From positions 2,019 through 66,018 of the forward strand of contig CANGPW010000002.1 of assembly GCA_947456185.1 (NCBI GenBank): DNA of 64,000 nt, read 5' to 3'. The notes beneath the pieces were generated by a model. That model did no database searches. It was given only the letters and a program-made list of their open reading frames with translations, and was not told where the DNA came from. Shown piece after piece: positions 1 to 16,647 of the stretch (positions within the stretch are counted from its first letter, which is position 1; every line of letters begins with the position of its first letter). A program made the translations under genes and the position numbers. Origin of the DNA: Bacteroidota bacterium (GTDB taxonomy: Bacteria > Bacteroidota > Bacteroidia > UKL13-3).

Positions 1-62
1 TATGAAGTATGAATGTTAAAGTTTGAAAAAAATAAAAAAATTCATAATTCATACTTTATACT
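1..62. repeat. word-repeat hairpin (tatgaagtatgaatg ... A-rich spacer ... ttcataattcatactttatactt)
   Basis: Inverted arms 1-15 and 41-62 of the catacttcat word family. May continue left of the window. Confidence 0.7.
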
Positions 63-86
63 TAATAATTAATAAAAAAAAAAAGT

Positions 87-452
87 ATGAATTATGTAAA
101 TGATAATAAACCAGAACCTATTAAGGAAAGGAGCTTTAGATTTGCAGTTGAAATAGTAAAATTCTGTATCGATTTAAAATTATTAAAACATTTTGAAATT
201 GCCAATCAATTAATAAGAACTGGAACATCGATTGGAGCTAATATTCGAGAAGCAAATAATGGTTTTAGTAAAAAGGATTTTGTTTTTAAAATGAGTATTG
301 CCCAAAAAGAAGCTGATGAAACCATATATTGGTTAGAAATAATCAATGAAATTGAAAACAACAACGACAAAACTACTTATCTAATTAAAGAAGCAAACGA
401 ATTACTTAAAATTATCCGATCCATTTCAATCAATGCAAAGAAAAATCTGTAA
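87..452 (+). CDS. four-helix-bundle protein (23S rRNA intervening-sequence protein / Avd-like family)
   Basis: 121-aa ORF. Motifs FRFAVEIVKF, LIRTGTSIGANIREA and KDFVFKMSIAQKEADETIYWLEI fit the S23 IVS four-helix-bundle family as I remember it. Confidence 0.85.
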   Translation: MNYVNDNKPEPIKERSFRFAVEIVKFCIDLKLLKHFEIANQLIRTGTSIGANIREANNGFSKKDFVFKMSIAQKEADETIYWLEIINEIENNNDKTTYLIKEANELLKIIRSISINAKKNL

Positions 453-462
453 AATATTCTTT

Positions 463-509
463 CATAATTTATACTTCATAATTTATACTTCATAATTTAT
501 ACTTCATAA
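463..509 (+). repeat. tandem repeat, 14-nt unit cataatttatactt x3 plus a partial unit
   Basis: Read directly from the sequence. The array ends 1 nt before the DegT ATG. Confidence 0.9.
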
Positions 510-510
510 A

Positions 511-1770
511 ATGAAAATACAAATGGTAGACCTCAAAGGTCAATATAAGAAAATAAAAGCTGAAGTTGATGCTGGAATCCAAGAAGTAATTGAAAATGTT
601 CAATTCATTAAAGGTCCACAAATAAAAGTATTTGAAGAAAACTTGGCAATATACTTAAATGTAAAACATGTAATAAGTTGTGCCAACGGAACTGATGCAT
701 TGCAAATTGCTATGATGGCATTGGATTTAAAACCTGGCGATGAGGTAATTTTACCTGTTTTTACTTACGTTGCCACAGCAGAAGTAATTGCCTTATTGGG
801 TTTAACTCCAGTAATGGTAGATGTGGATCCTGATACATTTTGCATTGATACAAATTTGATTGAATCAAAAATAACGCACAAAACTAAAGCCATCGTTCCT
901 GTACATTTGTTTGGTCAGTGCGCCAATATGGATGAAATCATGCGAATTGCAGATAAGCATAACCTATTTGTTATAGAAGACACTGCTCAAGCTTTGGGAG
1001 CAATTTATAATTATGAAGTAGAAATTATGAAGTATGAAAAAAAAGAAAATACCTTCATTCATAATTCATCATTCATAACTCATACTTATTCGGCAGGAAC
1101 AATAGGAAACATTGGAACCACTTCATTTTTTCCATCAAAAAATCTTGGTTGTTATGGAGATGGTGGAGCATTAATGACCAATGATGATGAGTTAGCAAAA
1201 AAAATCAGGATGATTTGTAACCATGGACAGTCTGTTCAATATGTGCATGATATAATTGGAGTTAACTCAAGGTTAGACAGCATACAAGCAGCAGTGCTAA
1301 ATGCTAAATTACCTCATTTGAAAAGTTATGAAACAGCCAGAAACGAAGCAGCAAATTTGTACGATGAATTATTGAGTAATCATCCAAATATTATTATTCC
1401 AAAACGCTATGCACAAAGTTCGCATGTTTTTCATCAGTACACAATAAAAATTATAAATGATGAATTATTTAATGAAAATAAAAAAATTCATCCTTCATCA
1501 TTACCCAATGTGTCGGAAATTCATACTTCATTCAGAGATAAAATTCGTAAGCATTTAGCGGAACGTAATATTCCAAGTATGGTTTACTACCCAATTGAAT
1601 TAAACAAACAAAAAGCATTTGAAAAATTCAATAGTAATAATGATCAATTCCCTGTTTCAAAAATGCTTTGTAAATCTGTTTTATCATTACCAATGCATAC
1701 TGAAATGAATAAAGATATGGTAGTATACATTTGCAAAAATTTATTGGAAATTATTGACACAGAATTTTAA
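511..1770 (+). CDS. DegT/DnrJ/EryC1/StrS-family PLP-dependent sugar aminotransferase, with two extra in-frame segments
   Basis: 419-aa ORF. Motifs: MVDLKGQY start, CANGTDALQIA, EDTAQALGA, Schiff-base lysine region TTSFFPSKNLG, NHGQ, GVNSRLDSIQAAVL. About 40-50 aa longer than typical family members because of repeat-derived inserts. Confidence 0.9.
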   Translation: MKIQMVDLKGQYKKIKAEVDAGIQEVIENVQFIKGPQIKVFEENLAIYLNVKHVISCANGTDALQIAMMALDLKPGDEVILPVFTYVATAEVIALLGLTPVMVDVDPDTFCIDTNLIESKITHKTKAIVPVHLFGQCANMDEIMRIADKHNLFVIEDTAQALGAIYNYEVEIMKYEKKENTFIHNSSFITHTYSAGTIGNIGTTSFFPSKNLGCYGDGGALMTNDDELAKKIRMICNHGQSVQYVHDIIGVNSRLDSIQAAVLNAKLPHLKSYETARNEAANLYDELLSNHPNIIIPKRYAQSSHVFHQYTIKIINDELFNENKKIHPSSLPNVSEIHTSFRDKIRKHLAERNIPSMVYYPIELNKQKAFEKFNSNNDQFPVSKMLCKSVLSLPMHTEMNKDMVVYICKNLLEIIDTEF

Positions 1771-1800
1771 TTCAAAATATTCGTAGAGTCTTAAAATTAT

Positions 1801-2109
1801 CTAGCCATTGCAAGCATCCTCGCTAGCAATATATGGTTAGAGACGTTGCATTGCAAGGTCTTTTTTTTGTTTAAAAGTTAGTTTCCTACCCTCATTTCGA
1901 CAAGCTCAATGACCGTTGTAATTTCAGTCATTTCGAGCGTAGTCGAGAAATAACAAACAAGTTCTCGACTAAGCTCGAACTGACATACCTAGCAGGTTTG
2001 GATTTGCAATCCAAATCATTTAGTTGAACTGAGATTGATGAAAACACACAACCTCGGGCAAAGATCCACCCCGTCAGTTAGCCAACTGACAACCCTCAAG
2101 AGAGGAATT
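1801..2109 (+). repeat. multi-hairpin module, copy A (extended form: terminator + core 1886-2109)
   Basis: Near-identical by eye to 3079-3374 and, from 1886 on, to 5236-5458. Contains hairpins H0 (1927-1984) to H5. Confidence 0.9.
1842..1868 (+). terminator. intrinsic terminator after the DegT gene (part of module copy A)
   Basis: gacgttg-cattg-caaggtc hairpin followed by T8. Confidence 0.6.
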
Positions 2110-2385
2110 ACATACTTCATCATTCATAAATCTCATATCACACTTCTCATCTCTCAATTCAAAATTTATACTTCATCAATTATAATTAGATTGCTTTCCC
2201 GCTTAGGCTGGACAGGCAGTGCCTCGCAATGACGGGTAAATTTAAATCTTTTTTCATACTTCATCATTCATACTTTCCCAATTTGTTGGGACTTTATACT
2301 TCATAATTTTCAATTCATCATTCCCAAAATTTTAGTCCATTATCGTTTATTTAGGTATTTTTATTTTATAGAAGTTTAACTACAT

Positions 2386-3021
2386 TTGTATGTGGGAACC
2401 AATTTAAAATATGAATTACACAATGTCATTTCAGGAAAGAGCCAAGTTAGGCATGGAGGAATTATCCAAACAATTGCCAATTACCTTAACCAAGGCGCGA
2501 GAACAAGCCCAAAAACTGAATATAGCAAGCAATACAAAGCTGAAGAAACAGAGAGGTTAAAGCTATTTATTGAAGGAAATAATCTCTGGGTTGAGATAGA
2601 TTTAAATCAATATGTGAGTGAAGGTGCCGAGCAAAAAGTTTATTTGAAAGACACCGCATCTGTTTATAAGCTGAATGATTCAATATACTATGCCAGTTGG
2701 CATGATTATTTCATTAACTTATTACTACATAATTTTTTTTTCTCGGATACTGCCTATCAATTAATTGGATTTGCAAAAGTGGAAGATGTTTTATTTGCAG
2801 TAGTGGAACAAGCCTTTGTGATCAATACTGAATCAACAGATTTAAATCGGGTAAGGCGCTTTCTGTCAGAAAATGGTTTTCAAAATATAAAGAACAACGA
2901 CTACTACAATCCTAGTTTAGGTATTATTATTGAAGATTTACATGATGAAAACGTATTGACTAAAAACAATATTTTATACTTTATTGATACTGTATTTTAT
3001 ATCACAGAGAATTTTCATTAA
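2386..3021 (+). CDS. hypothetical protein with protein-kinase-like motifs (small atypical kinase fold?)
   Basis: 211-codon ORF with a non-ATG start (TTG 2386 or GTG 2392). Gly-rich SEGAEQKVY followed by VYK, D184-LHDE-N189 (D-x4-N) and D201 in FIDT, spaced like the catalytic loop and metal-binding Asp of protein kinases. Own terminator at 3033-3055. Confidence 0.55.
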   Translation: MYVGTNLKYELHNVISGKSQVRHGGIIQTIANYLNQGARTSPKTEYSKQYKAEETERLKLFIEGNNLWVEIDLNQYVSEGAEQKVYLKDTASVYKLNDSIYYASWHDYFINLLLHNFFFSDTAYQLIGFAKVEDVLFAVVEQAFVINTESTDLNRVRRFLSENGFQNIKNNDYYNPSLGIIIEDLHDENVLTKNNILYFIDTVFYITENFH

Positions 3022-3032
3022 TTAGTTTTTTG

Positions 3033-3055
3033 TCCCAACTCGTTTGGGATTTTTT
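3033..3055 (+). terminator. intrinsic terminator after the kinase-like ORF
   Basis: tcccaa-ctcgt-ttggga hairpin followed by tttttt. Confidence 0.65.
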
Positions 3056-3078
3056 GTATAAAGTAGTGTAGTGATTTT

Positions 3079-3374
3079 CTAGCCATTGCAGGCGTCCTCG
3101 CCAGTAATATTTATAGAGACGTTGGCATTGCAACGTTTTTTTGTTTAAAATTTAGTTTACTACCCTCATTTCGACAAGCTCAATGACAGTTGTAATTTCA
3201 TTCATTTCGAGCGTAGTCGAGAAATAACAAACAAGTTCTCGACTAAGCTCGAACTGACGGTTTGGATTTGCAATCCAAATCATTTATTTGAACTTGAGGT
3301 TGATGAAAACACACAACCTCGGGGAAAGTTCCACCCCGTCAGTTAGCCAACTGACAACCCTCAAGAGAGGAATT
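3079..3374 (+). repeat. multi-hairpin module, copy B (extended form; core 3160-3374)
   Basis: Direct repeat of copy A. Lacks the 10-nt atacctagca segment between H0 and H1. Confidence 0.9.
3119..3142 (+). terminator. second terminator-like hairpin (part of module copy B)
   Basis: acgttg-gcattg-caacgt followed by T7. Confidence 0.55.
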
Positions 3375-3513
3375 ACATACTCCAAAATTTATCATTCATA
3401 CTTCACCTACTTTGAATTTTTGTTACTCCGCATTTCGCACTTTCCTCAAAATTCATCATTCATAATTCATAATTTAGCCCTACATTCGCCCCTTTTAAAA
3501 AAGTAAATAATAA

Positions 3514-5145
<1,632 letters not shown>

Positions 5146-5168
5146 TTTTTTAAATCATCAATATAAAA

Positions 5169-5197
5169 GCCAAATGTGAAAACGTTTGGCTTTTTTT
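5169..5197 (+). terminator. intrinsic terminator after the ABC-F gene
   Basis: gccaaa-tgtgaaaacg-tttggc followed by T7. Confidence 0.75.
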
Positions 5198-5235
5198 GTT
5201 TTATAACCATTCATCTGATATTAGCTATTGGCACA

Positions 5236-5458
5236 CTACCTCATTTCACAAGCTCAATGACCGTTGTAATTTCAGTCATTTCGAGCGTAGTCGAGAAATA
5301 ACAAACAAGTTCTCGACTACACTCGAACTGACATACCTGGCCGGTTTGGATTTGCAATCCAAATCATTTATTTGAACTTGAGGTTGGTGAAAACACACAA
5401 CCTCGGGGAAAGTTTTACCCCGTCAGTTAGCCAACTGACACCCCTCAAGAGGGGAATT
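5236..5458 (+). repeat. multi-hairpin module, copy C (core only)
   Basis: Same order of hairpins H0-H5 as copies A and B, with single-base differences. Confidence 0.9.
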
Positions 5459-5655
5459 TACTTCGAAATACTTTTATACTTTATACTTTCCCGATGTGTC
5501 GGGATTTCATCATTTCTCAGTGCTCATCTCTCATGTCTGGATTCGGCAAGCTCACCAAGACAAAATCTATTCATCTTTACCACTTCATCATTTATACTTC
5601 ATACTTTATAATTCATAATTCATTCTTATCTTGCCAGCCCAATATTTAACATTGA

Positions 5656-6711
5656 ATGGCAGAAAAATTTGAAATAGAAACTACTCAATTAGAAAAAGTT
5701 TCGGTGCATCAAGTAGGGAATAAAACCAATAACGAAGACCTCATTATATCGAAGGATTTGTTGGATTTAAGCGATGGGAAATTGAAAGATTTATTGATGA
5801 AATTTTTCGTTTCATCGTTCAATAATCCTGAGTTTTATAACTTCAGTTTTAGCAATAACGATTTTACTTTGAACCCTATTTATAGTTATGCTTTGCAAAT
5901 GTTTGAACATGGCAGTGCTTTTCATATCAATAGCATCCATATTGCAAAACATTTATTTGAACTTTCTACTCATCCACAAATAAAAAGTGGTGATTTGTTT
6001 ATTGCTTATTTTGCCAATATTCAAGTGGAAGATGAAGACGTGGAAGCCATTGGAATTTTTAAATCGGAAAACAAATACGACTTTTTAAAATTGAACCAAA
6101 GCAATAACGTTTTTGATGTAAGTTATAATGATGGAATTAACATAGATAAGCTGGACAAAGGTTGTTTAATATTTAACACCAATGCCGATCAAGGTTATAA
6201 AGTTTGTATCATTGACAAAGGAAATAAAGGCAACGAAGCACAATATTGGAAAGATAGTTTTTTACAACTAAAACCTTGTAGCAATAATTATAACCACACC
6301 AAAGAGTTTATGAATATTGCCAAAAACTTTGTGACTAAACAATTGAACGAAGAGTTTGAAGTTAGCAAAGCTGACCAAATAGATTACTTGAACCGCTCAG
6401 TAGATTATTTTAAAACCAACGATACTTTTGACAAAAAAGAATTTGAACAAGCTGTGTTTAAAGATGAAGGAGTAATAGAATCGTTCCGCACCTTTGATGA
6501 AGCATACCGAGTGAGCAATGAATTGGATATTTCCGATAGTTTTGATATATCGAGTCAGGCGGTAAAAAAGCAAGCCAGAATTTTTAAAAGCGTGCTTAAA
6601 TTAGATAAGAATTTCCATATTTATATTCACGGAAACCGAAATCTTATTGAACAAGGAGTGGAAGAAGATGGACGTAAGTTTTATAAAATATATTTTAAAG
6701 AAGAGGAGTAA
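5656..6711 (+). CDS. nucleoid-associated protein, NdpA/YejK-like family
   Basis: 351 aa. The N-terminal LEKVSVHQVGNKTNNE motif and overall length are typical of Bacteroidota NdpA-like proteins. Confidence 0.7.
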   Translation: MAEKFEIETTQLEKVSVHQVGNKTNNEDLIISKDLLDLSDGKLKDLLMKFFVSSFNNPEFYNFSFSNNDFTLNPIYSYALQMFEHGSAFHINSIHIAKHLFELSTHPQIKSGDLFIAYFANIQVEDEDVEAIGIFKSENKYDFLKLNQSNNVFDVSYNDGINIDKLDKGCLIFNTNADQGYKVCIIDKGNKGNEAQYWKDSFLQLKPCSNNYNHTKEFMNIAKNFVTKQLNEEFEVSKADQIDYLNRSVDYFKTNDTFDKKEFEQAVFKDEGVIESFRTFDEAYRVSNELDISDSFDISSQAVKKQARIFKSVLKLDKNFHIYIHGNRNLIEQGVEEDGRKFYKIYFKEEE

Positions 6712-6901
6712 ACGTGCTTTGTAAGTTTAAAATGCGAAGTGCGAAGTGACAAAAATGCGAAGTGAATGAAATGCCTGAATTGGCAATGGGCAAATAGCAA
6801 TAAGCAATTGACAATTTTCTTCATTATTAACTTAATCATTTGAATTTTACTTCGCAATCGAAATTCCGCACTTCGCAATCAGAAAATAATTTCGCACTTC
6901 G

Positions 6902-8050
6902 TTAGAACAATTTATTCTTATACGTAGGTGTAAATCCTAAATGTTGGTATGCTTTTTCGGTGGCTTCTCGTCCGCGAGGTGTGCGCATCAAAAATCCTTC
7001 TTGAATTAAATAAGGTTCATAAACTTCTTCTATTGTTCCACCATCTTCACCAATGGCAGTTGCCAAAGTATTTAATCCAACAGGTCCGCCTTTGAACTTT
7101 TCAATCAAGGTTTTTAAAATCCTGGAATCCATTTCATCTAAACCTTCACTGTCTACGTTCAATGCATTTAAGGCAAATTGAGCAATTTCTAAAGTGATTG
7201 TTCCATCGCTTTTTACTTGTGCAAAATCACGGGTTCTTCGCAATAAAGCATTCCCAATTCTGGGCGTTCCTCTACTCCTACGTGCAATTTCCCATGCGGC
7301 CTCTTCATCAATGATGGAATTCATAATGGTAGAGCTACGCTCAATAATGGTTTTCATTAAAGCTTTGTCGTAATACTGCAAACGAGCGTTAATTCCAAAC
7401 CTAGCACGCAAAGGAGAAGTTAATAATCCGGAACGAGTGGTTGCACCAATTAAAGTAAATGGTTCTATTTCTAACTGAATACTGCGCGCATTTGGCCCGC
7501 TATCAATCATAATATCTATTTTATAATCTTCCATAGCCGAATATAAAAACTCTTCCACTACCGGACTTAAACGATGTATTTCATCAATAAAAAGTACATC
7601 GCCTTTTTCTAAATTAGTTAATAAACCTGCTAAGTCACCCGCTTTTTCTAAAACAGGGCCACTTGTTGTTTTTATATTTGCGCCTAACTCGTTGGCTATA
7701 ATTATACTTAAAGTAGTTTTTCCCAATCCAGGAGGGCCATGCAAAAGCACATGATCCAATGATTCGCCACGTTGTTTGGCAGCTTGAACAAATATTTTTA
7801 AATTCTCAATGGTTTTTTCCTGACCTGTAAAATCATCAAATAATCGTGGACGTAACACACGCTCCAATTCTTTGTCAACATTGGTTAAATTACTTTCTTC
7901 AGGATCTAAATTTGGATTTCTCACAAGGGCGAATATAGTATTTTTTTCTTTTTGGTGAAAAGGATGATGAGTTGATGGAGTTGTTGATGTGTTGAGGTGT
8001 TGAGGTGTTTGAGTGTTGAGGTGTTTATGTGTTGAGGTGCTTATTGCCAA
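6902..8050 (-). CDS. ruvB: Holliday junction branch migration DNA helicase RuvB (true start probably GTG at 7924)
   Basis: [13 protein letters not shown], Walker [10 protein letters not shown], Walker [22 protein letters not shown]. The first 42 codons of the ORF are encoded by tandem word repeats. Confidence 0.95.
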
Positions 8051-14869: not shown

Positions 14870-15411
14870 AATTATTTAATTATTTAATTTGATTACGAAA
14901 ACAAAGTTATGATAGTACATTATAAAGTCAAGCATTTGAATTTATAATTTATGATTTTTATAAAAAAAATAAAAATATATCTGTTAATAAGTGAAAAACA
15001 AAAGCATGAAGATATCAGTATTTACTAACAACTATGAAAATATTTTTTTTATAAAAAACTGTTATTAACTATTGAAAAAATTATGAACTTATTATAAACA
15101 AATCTATAAGCTATAAAGTATTTTTATTAATATAGTTATATATCAATACCTGTTAACTACTGTTTTCAAAAGCCCTCACAAAGATTGATATAAAAAATTT
15201 TAATGAAAATAAAAAATAAAAAAATAAAATGTATTTCAAACTTTATATAAAATTTAAAACAATTTTATATAAAATAAGTAGTATAAATTATACATATTGA
15301 TAATAAAATAATAAAAATAAATTATAAAATGTAACATGAATATAAAATAAATTATTTGTAATGTTGAACCAAGATAATTATAAGAGCGTAATTATATATT
15401 TATAACAAATT

Positions 15412-16647
15412 ATGAAAGCAGAGATAATAACAATAGGTGATGAATTATTAATTGGTCAAGTAATAGATACAAATAGTGCTTGGCTAGGTCAACAGTTGAG
15501 TTTATTGGGCATTAGCTTGTACCAACGTACAGCTTGTGGCGATAGTAAAGAACAAATATTAGCATGCATACATGATGCTGAATTACGTAGTGATATAATA
15601 ATTATTACCGGTGGATTAGGTCCAACAAAAGATGACATAACAAAGAAAACATTGTGTGAATACTTCAATACGAATTTAGTACCTGATGAAAAAGTATTAG
15701 CATGGGTTACTCGTATTTTCCAAATGAGAAAAATGCCAATGCTTGATATCAATTTACAACAAGCATTGGTACCATCAAATAGTAAAACATTATGGAATAG
15801 AAGTGGTACTGCTCCAGGAATGTGGTTTGATGTAAATAATAAAATATTTATTTCATTGCCTGGTGTTCCATTCGAAATGAAAGTAATTTTTGATGAAGAA
15901 GTTATTCCTTTATTGAAACAAAAATTTGATCTTCCTACTATCTATCATAGAACATTGCAAACATGTTCAATAGGTGAAAGTTTTTTAGCTGAAAAAATAA
16001 AAGATATTGAGAACAATTTACCAAGTTATATAAAACTAGCATACTTGCCATCAGTTGGCACTGTAAGGCTTCGACTTAGTGCATACGGAAACAATAAAGA
16101 ACATTTAATTCATGAAGTTAATCAAATATGTAATCAGTTATATGAAAAAATTGATGAATATATATATGGTGAAGGTGATGATAATTTAAGTCAAGTAGTT
16201 GGAACATTATTAAAAGAAAAAAGCAAAACTTTAGCAACTGCAGAAAGTTGTACAGGAGGATTTATAGCACATCAAATAACATCTATAGCAGGTAGTTCAT
16301 CATATTATAAAGGTAGTATTGTTAGTTATGATAATAAAATAAAAACACTTGAATTAAATGTTAGTGTTGAAATTTTAAAAAATGATGGAGCAGTTAGCGA
16401 AGCATGTGTTAAACAAATGGCGCAAACTATTCTTAAAAAATTTAACGTAGATTATGCTATTGCAACTAGCGGAATTGCCGGACCTGGTGGAGGCTCAGAA
16501 GAAAAACCAGTTGGTACAGTATGGATTGCTATAGCAAATAAAAATGAAGTAATAGCTAAGAAATATAATATGGGAGACAACAGGGAAAGAACCATTTTAA
16601 GAACTAGTTTAATGGCATTTGATATGTTAAGGAAAATGATTTTGTAA
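15412..16647 (+). CDS. cinA: competence/damage-inducible protein CinA (MoCF-like domain + PncC nicotinamide-nucleotide amidase domain)
   Basis: MKAEIITIGDELLIGQVIDTNSAWL N-terminus and TAESCTGG C-terminal domain. Confidence 0.9.
   Translation: MKAEIITIGDELLIGQVIDTNSAWLGQQLSLLGISLYQRTACGDSKEQILACIHDAELRSDIIIITGGLGPTKDDITKKTLCEYFNTNLVPDEKVLAWVTRIFQMRKMPMLDINLQQALVPSNSKTLWNRSGTAPGMWFDVNNKIFISLPGVPFEMKVIFDEEVIPLLKQKFDLPTIYHRTLQTCSIGESFLAEKIKDIENNLPSYIKLAYLPSVGTVRLRLSAYGNNKEHLIHEVNQICNQLYEKIDEYIYGEGDDNLSQVVGTLLKEKSKTLATAESCTGGFIAHQITSIAGSSSYYKGSIVSYDNKIKTLELNVSVEILKNDGAVSEACVKQMAQTILKKFNVDYAIATSGIAGPGGGSEEKPVGTVWIAIANKNEVIAKKYNMGDNRERTILRTSLMAFDMLRKMIL

Follow-up and report, generated by a model that had tools for sequence, protein, structure and literature searches.

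Gene order and direct repeats at the kinase locus

The window analysed here is a stretch of 64,000 nucleotides (nt) from a Bacteroidota bacterium of the UKL13-3 lineage (bases 2019-66018 of contig CANGPW010000002.1, hereafter C2), and our subject within it is an open reading frame (ORF) that codes for a predicted protein kinase of the Kinase-PolyVal family, together with the two long direct repeats that enclose it. The genome, a metagenome-assembled genome (MAG) of 2.61 Mb in 127 contigs with 31% G+C, is labelled G000; G001-G018 are relatives from the same genus, and L numbers denote extracted loci, including metagenome contigs. Over the first 8 kb of the window the gene order is 23S IVP, DegT, kinase ORF, ABC-F, NA37 and, on the opposite strand, RuvB (Table 1).

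A first-pass annotation of the window had described direct repeats on both sides of the kinase ORF, and MAFFT alignment bears this out: copy A (1796-2116) and copy B (3074-3381) are co-oriented and lie 1278 nt apart, start to start. The repeat pair of about 300 nt stands, with its edges corrected to a start at 1796 instead of 1801 and to ends at 2116 and 3381. Over their ~310-320 nt the two copies are ~95% identical at aligned bases, differing by 15 substitutions and three indels, and in a BLAST comparison of the whole assembly the A/B match has an E value of 7e-121. Each copy is made up of a left part, which we call the extension, and a composite module of small hairpins. A third module copy, C, lies beyond the ABC-F gene. 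The extension had been described as an 85-nt stretch common to A and B only, and indeed these two align there with 72 matches, 8 mismatches and 6 gap columns (90%), while copy C has no counterpart, its identity of 44-48% being at noise level. In the shared module A and B are 96.7% identical (7 mismatches, one 10-nt and one 1-nt indel), compared with 91.5% for A/C and 93.5% for B/C; A and B are the closest pair after alignment. Copy B lacks 10 nt that both A and C possess. The full composite of extension and module occurs in the assembly only at these three places (at C without the extension), and a partial, older copy is found on contig C55, where positions 14950-15024 correspond to the extension and 16490-16606 to the module's second half (82-85% identity).

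Table 1. Features of the kinase locus and of other repeat-bracketed genes in genome G000. Positions are those of the window unless a contig is named.
Feature	Position	Strand	Basis or remark
Four-helix-bundle (23S IVP) gene	87-452		
DegT/WbpE-type sugar aminotransferase gene; native left flank of the proposed insertion site	511..1770	+	Pfam PF01041, E 4.5e-110
Copy A, left part (extension): one hairpin, then the DegT terminator hairpin and T-run	1796..1885	+	
Copy A, right part: composite module of five or six small hairpins	1886..2116	+	
Cassette leader: heptamer word repeats, small hairpins 2196-2237 and 2276-2291, conserved start-proximal region	2117..2385	+	
Kinase-PolyVal ORF, 211 aa if read from TTG 2386; the conserved GTG 2392 is the more likely start (209 aa)	2386..3021	+	
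Cassette trailer: terminator-like hairpin of the ORF itself (3032-3050), then T-run	3022..3073	+	Terminator scan
Copy B: extension 3074-3159 and module 3160-3381; putative duplicated target	3074..3381	+	
Native ABC-F leader and promoter region; right flank of the proposed insertion site	3382..3513	+	DNA homology to 16 relatives
ABC-F ATPase gene (housekeeping), between module copies B and C	3514..5145	+	Pfam ABC_tran (twice), ABC_tran_Xtn
Module copy C, without extension, in the ABC-F/NA37 spacer	5236..5458 (approx.)	+	
NA37 nucleoid protein gene	5656-6711		
AAA_14/DUF4143 ATPase region	C55:14387-17554 and C2:1-260		ATPase between extension-like element and module second half
Repeat-bracketed genes in G000	C60 14381-15112; C62 8795-9442; C1 48880-49410; C36 20781-21666		
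Repeat-bracketed genes in G000, continued	C93 3338-4039; C5 9191-9625; C70 10828-11223; window 87-452		

The origin of the extension can be read from its terminator hairpin (AGAGACGTTGCA..TGCAA.GTCT, followed by a run of eight to nine T), which is found at the same position 3' of DegT in G016, G010, L158 and L161. This conserved position marks the extension as native to the DegT flank. The extension of copy B lies 3' of the kinase gene and so duplicates the DegT terminator region, as is expected if the spacer was duplicated when a cassette carrying the kinase gene arrived, and is hard to explain otherwise.

Since the assembly is a MAG of many contigs, and contigs of its relatives often break near such repeats, one repeat might have been traversed twice or two strains joined. 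We regard such an assembly artefact as highly improbable. The many differences between A and B speak against it, as does the same architecture in independently assembled species. Moreover, the metagenome contig L119 (ENA contig k141_2014464) matches window positions 2405-3500 at 99.8% and includes the kinase gene, copy B and the ABC-F leader; because it comes from an independent sample, the right half of the structure is not an artefact of assembly. To the left of this match L119 (1-892) carries a Peptidase_M78 gene, of the ImmA/IrrE-like type, and its kinase has another N-terminus; the GC content is 41%, and these 892 nt have no match in the 19 genus genomes. The left side of L119 may be a chimera or a recombinant allele, and we used this contig only for the right junction.

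The kinase gene and its cassette

The ORF had been called kinase-like at first pass, and its product matches the Pfam family Kinase-PolyVal (PF18762) with an E value of 6.5e-63 and 211.9 bits (cut-off 27) over profile positions 1-159 of 160. In an alignment of 34 homologues the residues D182, H184, D185 and N187 are invariant and D199 is conserved in at least 90%. An AlphaFold2 model of the protein reached a pLDDT of 85.7 and a pTM of 0.85, and the top Foldseek matches in the PDB are all protein kinases, with weak scores (E ~3e-3, probability 0.97-1.0, TM ~0.35). The protein has no match in NCBIfam, in PADLOC or among PDB sequences. On the strength of its sequence and model, the ORF product is predicted to be an intact, strongly conserved minimal protein kinase, and the gene is most likely a selfish or conflict-related one. 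We found no literature on the mobility of this gene family, and a single paper was found to name the Pfam family.

The distribution of the kinase is patchy and accessory. It is present in 5 of the 19 genus genomes and in 37 of 401 genomes of the class (31 of 199 genera), always in a single copy, as here, and in varied contexts. Free-standing homologues of ~210 amino acids (aa) number in the thousands and are ~65-70% identical across orders. The kinase of G010 is 85% identical and stands in another context; its surroundings share with this genome only window positions 2300-3032, so that of the leader only 2300-2385 is common to both cassettes (86% nt identity). The 1.8-kb contig on which the G010 kinase lies has two repeat elements in common with the region 3' of the G010 DegT gene. 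These two contigs do not join, and the G010 kinase may lie downstream of DegT as well.

The kinase gene is the only ORF of more than 60 aa wholly between A and B; an unsupported 65-aa frame (2035-2232) overlaps the end of copy A. As first described, the gene is followed by a terminator-like hairpin of its own and then a T-run, and the same hairpin occurs 3' of an 80%-identical kinase in L120. At the other end a TAnnTTTG box of the Bacteroidota type (2381-2388) abuts the kinase start codon, and does likewise in other cassettes, which suggests a leaderless or near-leaderless transcript. We observed this placement of the box against the start codon in cassettes from different orders (window 2381-2394, L045 1440-1460, L118 2985-3003 and L115 2985-3003). 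Pfam, NCBIfam and PADLOC disclosed no transposase, integrase or recombinase in the insert, no integrase-like ORF was found within window positions 1-8000, and around the unit we found direct repeats only, with no terminal inverted repeats. Retroposition of an mRNA was considered and rejected, since the cassettes carry 74-270 nt upstream of the kinase start, including the promoter-like box, and have no tail.

Kinase genes of the same family at other loci

We scored 37 loci of this kinase family, of which 28 came from 400 class genomes drawn evenly, by locally aligning the 700 nt before the ORF with the 700 nt after it and taking the best alignment in direct orientation. A score above 20 was reached in direct orientation at 11 of the 37 loci (7 of the 28 from the even draw) and in inverted orientation at none of the 37. 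Three hundred mismatched flank pairs, serving as a null, gave a maximum of 18.5, and in this genome, itself rich in repeats, 10 (2%) of 500 randomly drawn ORFs of comparable size scored above 20. For the unbiased 28 loci against the random ORFs, Fisher's test gives p = 7e-6.

The individual loci are informative. In G002 the final 239 nt of the gene upstream are present twice (92% identical), each time up to the stop codon, with the kinase gene between the two copies. In G001 the kinase is flanked by direct repeats of ~80 nt, and G005 and G017 keep the G001 flanks with one repeat copy and no kinase. In G018 ~35 nt are duplicated, including the first codons of the downstream gene, and the corresponding empty site, with one copy, lies on contig C5 of the present genome. 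Outside the genus, repeats of 83 nt (L118) and 36 nt (L115) flank the kinase in two unrelated assemblies, and seven further loci from the even draw have repeats of 32-153 nt. In L120 a fragment of the 5' end of the downstream oxidoreductase gene lies directly upstream of the kinase. Across all loci the duplications range from 33 to ~320 nt and are not of fixed length. Taken together, these loci show that the kinase family inserts at many non-specific sites as a DNA-level, promoter-bearing unit, duplicating its target.

Two observations were made beside these loci. Next to the G018 kinase cassette lies a zeta-toxin-like gene (PF06414; L044, G018:C42 345-1297), itself between direct repeats of 42 nt; in the present genome a HEPN-type gene occupies the zeta-toxin spot, which makes this site a cassette hot spot. 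Metagenome contigs with close kinase homologues are mostly shorter than 2.5 kb, which fits assembly breaks at duplicated flanks.

What the repeats are follows from their distribution. In G131, G281 and G332 the flanking repeat occurs exactly twice per genome and only around the kinase. A repeat that is specific to its locus and present exactly twice per genome is probably a duplicated target and not a vehicle. The flanking repeats of 12 cassettes are unrelated to each other, with no shared end motif and no shared sites of the attC type, and none of the cassettes encodes a recombinase. The first-pass annotation had offered as one alternative a gene carried by the repeat element, and this fails, because each kinase locus has a different, locus-specific repeat that is often the 3' or 5' end of a neighbouring gene. 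For the same reasons it is very unlikely that a mobile element with the ORF as its cargo, for instance a transposon of the composite or MITE-pair (miniature inverted-repeat transposable element) type or an integron-like attC cassette, has A and B as its ends. This reading is invited by highly structured repeats that enclose one ORF with its promoter; compared with shuffled sequence, the module folds much more stably (-96.6 kcal/mol for 1796-2115, z -7.0). Yet the repeats differ wholly between loci and include the coding ends of neighbouring genes, terminal inverted repeats are absent, Rfam at gathering thresholds has no match in the region, and the full composite is present nowhere else in this genome or in the genus.

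The flanking copies have diverged by 5% at the present locus and by 5-19% at the others. Divergence of this size approximates that between species and speaks for a Campbell-type integration, in which a circle carrying the kinase gene and one repeat copy, excised in a related strain by recombination between A and B, recombined with the resident copy, the repeat thus mediating the gain. Such an event would yield an identical structure, ~310 nt is ample homology for RecA, and the outer copy in G001 is much less like the orthologous sites in G005 and G017 than is the inner copy. This asymmetry is explained equally well, however, by faster decay of an unconstrained copy, and integration of this type cannot found a new locus, whereas at each new kinase locus a target of its own was duplicated, in some cases over only 33-45 nt. 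We consider the Campbell-type origin rather improbable. Comparison of R1, R2 and empty-site sequences was tried as a means of separating duplication in situ from an incoming copy; it proved uninformative, the outer copy being unconstrained.

Synteny of the insertion site and history of the module copies

DNA homology around ABC-F starts at window positions 3381-3497 in all 16 genus relatives examined, at 3381 in G016 and at 3384 in G002. Because homology in the closest relatives starts at the right edge of copy B, positions 3382-3513 are the native flank of ABC-F. The 5 kb upstream of ABC-F in these 16 relatives contain neither DegT nor a kinase gene. DegT has orthologues in 12 genus genomes and in the metagenome locus L158 (71-87% aa identity), and neither ABC-F nor a kinase gene was found downstream of DegT in these 12 relatives and 80 metagenome loci. 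No relative was found that carries the ORF at this position without the flanking modules.

The ABC-F protein is conserved across the genus at 91-99% aa identity, and its gene is a synteny breakpoint (window 3381-5160 compared with L006 and L022-L036). Only ~65-130 nt upstream and a few bases downstream are common to all species, and the neighbouring genes form four or more groups on the upstream side and four or more on the downstream side. Upstream of ABC-F the ancestral gene was probably lpxB, which now lies on contig C13 with no module adjoining it.

Each hairpin of the module belongs to a small repeat family, and these families are present in every genus genome. In the G002 spacer between ABC-F and NA37 (L035, G002:C250 1560-1690) the first 45 nt and the last 40 nt of module C are kept, and ~45 unrelated bases replace three inner hairpins; sub-elements turn over within a fixed frame. 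The presence of the outer parts of C in this spacer shows that C is old and its site at least partly ancestral there. A general period of terminator, module, word repeats and ORF, which had been read into the locus at first pass, accordingly does not hold, copy C being without the extension and its site partly ancestral. The ancestor of A and B was apparently copied from C to the other side of ABC-F, at the synteny breakpoint. A possible reading of the extra module copies is that insertions followed one another in a nested manner, every one of them duplicating the same spacer.

These copies also raise the question whether local copying of extension and module, through segmental duplication or gene conversion among the hairpin arrays between genes, came first, and the kinase gene simply landed, or was left, between two of the copies. 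Four module copies or part-copies lie within ~12 kb (C55 16490-16606, A, B and C), the housekeeping ABC-F gene likewise stands between two copies (B and C), relatives carry the sub-hairpins dispersed and in shuffled arrangements, and five changes private to A, clustered within 43 nt, resemble a conversion patch. Two facts nevertheless make a chance insertion unlikely. First, A and B are the most alike, and only they share the DegT terminator region, which without duplication would not be expected downstream of an incoming gene. Second, duplications around this kinase family at unrelated, repeat-poor loci are far commoner than around random genes.

Other small-gene cassettes in the genome

Comparison of the assembly with itself revealed several small genes that stand between locally unique direct repeats of 100-230 nt (Table 1). 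They encode ParE, DUF559, GIY-YIG, two RAYT-like proteins, a GNAT, a HEPN-type NTase_sub_bind protein and four-helix-bundle IVP proteins; an acyltransferase operon is listed with them. For ParE the genome of G010 has the exact empty site, with one 130-nt copy that is the 3' end of the upstream gene. The inserts with a RAYT-like gene and with the GIY-YIG gene are missing in relatives, and the DUF559 gene has flanking repeats without a clean empty site. The ParE and GIY-YIG cassettes thus behave like the kinase, empty sites included. The RAYT-like genes (NF047646 below cut-off, E ~1e-13) have doublets of hairpins resembling repetitive extragenic palindromic (REP) sequences on both sides, and this case is better read as REP-like hairpin arrays.

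Surroundings of the locus

Contig C55 ends in 100 nt that match bases 26-125 of C2 at 100%, and this unit is found nowhere else in the genome, so that the locus continues leftwards onto C55. Read towards DegT, this continuation has first a Bac_transf sugar transferase, then an extension-like element, next an AAA_14/DUF4143 ATPase gene and after it the module's second half. Arrays of a heptamer word (ttcataa) and five tandem units of ~175 nt follow, and the continuation ends with a GFO_IDH oxidoreductase, a hexapeptide acetyltransferase, the IVP gene and DegT. The locus is a surface-polysaccharide gene cluster interspersed with small accessory genes.

Similar clusters were seen elsewhere. In Salinimicrobium sp. 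MT39 (L114, JAPJDA010000006.1, 48-6639) a Kinase-PolyVal gene and an IVP gene lie in a surface-polysaccharide cluster with NeuB, an epimerase and a CMP-sugar transferase. The P0003 contig, again in a surface-polysaccharide cluster, has the order Glycos_transf_4, kinase, GFO_IDH, hexapeptide, IVP, and its kinase takes the slot that the DUF4143 ATPase fills in this genome. Finally, the DegT gene itself contains two elements of word repeat and hairpin (1009-1088 and 1455-1534) that are translated in frame; G016 has a different insert at the first of these sites.

A probable single-gene cassette with a long target duplication

The explanation we favour, and consider probable, is that positions 2117-3073 are a single-gene mobile cassette that inserted between DegT and ABC-F with a long duplication of its target. 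The anatomy of the locus and the behaviour of the family at other loci are the grounds for this assignment. The cassette would consist of the leader, its own promoter region, the Kinase-PolyVal gene and the terminator. It would have entered the spacer that then separated DegT from ABC-F, and ~310 nt of this spacer, namely the DegT terminator region and the multi-hairpin module, would have been duplicated, so that A precedes and B follows the cassette. Two joints made at staggered positions of the target, with the stretch between them copied twice, would give this result. The joints might form by fill-in of a break with long overhangs, or by a replicating strand that switches to the donor and returns upstream of its point of departure. 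Later recombination of the RecA type between the flanking copies could delete the cassette, or release it as a circle able to re-enter the same site in a relative.

Several points weigh against this explanation. The way in which the joints form is wholly our inference; 12 cassettes show no visible microhomology at their joints, and among them no donor-recipient pair is recent enough for the joints to be read. The empty state that had been predicted at first pass was found at other loci (the kinases of G001 and G018, and ParE) but not at this site: an arrangement of DegT, one repeat and ABC-F is absent among the 18 genus relatives and the 80 metagenome DegT loci. The duplication of ~310 nt exceeds those at all other kinase loci, where the maximum is 239 nt. 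The junction between A and the kinase gene is without independent confirmation, L119 differing from the window to the left of 2405. In the second half of the module B is nearly as near to C (95.7%) as to A (96.5%), which could reflect gene conversion, and a third copy at C and a partial fourth on C55 mean that the module multiplies locally by events independent of the kinase.

From the behaviour of the family at other loci, the ORF is an accessory, mobile cassette whose repeats are both the signature of its arrival and the route of its loss, much as first proposed. The cassette idea was right in substance and its alternative of a gene carried by the repeat was wrong; the phenomenon belongs to a kind already described, has a new cargo that is not a nuclease, and is unusually well supported by comparison. 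We would go further only with considerable reserve, and think it doubtful that free-standing Kinase-PolyVal genes are widespread, autonomous one-gene mobile elements of Bacteroidota that spread with no recombinase, by a mode of insertion in which tens to hundreds of target bases are copied, and whose kinase aids its own establishment. Under such a reading the kinase might act on host repair or replication proteins at insertion, or might secure retention in the manner of an addiction system. If true, long target duplication would be a process promoted by the cargo in a non-nuclease system.

Together with the ParE, GIY-YIG and possibly DUF559 cassettes, the kinase points to a general, host-level route of entry for small selfish or accessory genes. 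Its homologues, thousands in number, offer natural material on a large scale, and reading the joints of recent events among them could reveal the mechanism. Duplicated flanks would also explain the presence of such genes on very short metagenome contigs, and since flanking duplicated gene ends are pseudo-fragments, annotation should not call them genes.

Comparison with known systems

For 25 years insertion with long target duplication has been on record, mainly from restriction-modification genes and without a mechanism, and the leading idea has been the cargo's own cutting of DNA. Nobusato et al. are said to have described it in 2000 for restriction-modification gene complexes. In that system variable direct repeats of more than 30 bp flank the genes with no other mobile element, an empty site is found in a relative, and the repeats often span the start or stop of a gene; the mechanism is unexplained and was tentatively put down to breaks that the restriction enzyme makes in DNA (Furuta, Abe and Kobayashi 2010, PMC2853133). 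The kinase cassettes are alike in being short units without transposase or integrase, with long direct repeats that are unique to their locus and single-copy in the empty sites of relatives. They differ in their cargo, which is a kinase and not a restriction enzyme, so that DNA breakage made by the cargo is unavailable as a cause. The present locus differs also in the length of its duplication, ~310 nt, at the long end, and in that no empty site was found for it. New in comparison with what was known are the phylum (Bacteroidota), the family-wide frequency (~30% of loci still show the duplication) and a cargo without a recognisable nuclease domain. Such a cargo shows the same signature repeatedly across the phylum, with empty sites for comparison.

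Sedentary chromosomal integron arrays resemble the locus in that single small ORFs alternate with structured direct repeats of ~100 nt and the usual cargo consists of toxin-antitoxin or accessory genes. In integrons, however, the attC sites are one family per array, recognised by IntI, whereas here each locus has its own target-derived repeat, there is no array platform, and the cassettes carry their own promoter-like region. REP/RAYT and MITE-like repeats are matched by the sub-hairpins of the module, which are short palindromic repeats dispersed between genes across the genus. In contrast, the 310-nt unit of A and B is not dispersed, is whole at this locus alone and takes in the terminator of a gene. 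Unlike a composite transposon or MITE cassette, the unit has neither terminal inverted repeats nor a short target duplication of fixed length.

As for the cargo, Iyer et al. reportedly described Kinase-PolyVal in 2017 as a domain of the polyvalent proteins of phages and conjugative elements. The protein studied here is like that domain in its full-length, high-scoring match to the model and in keeping the catalytic-loop residues. Unlike the giant multidomain polyvalent proteins, it is free-standing, with ~210 aa and a helical N-terminal stretch of ~60 residues, and is encoded on the chromosome in a cassette of its own.

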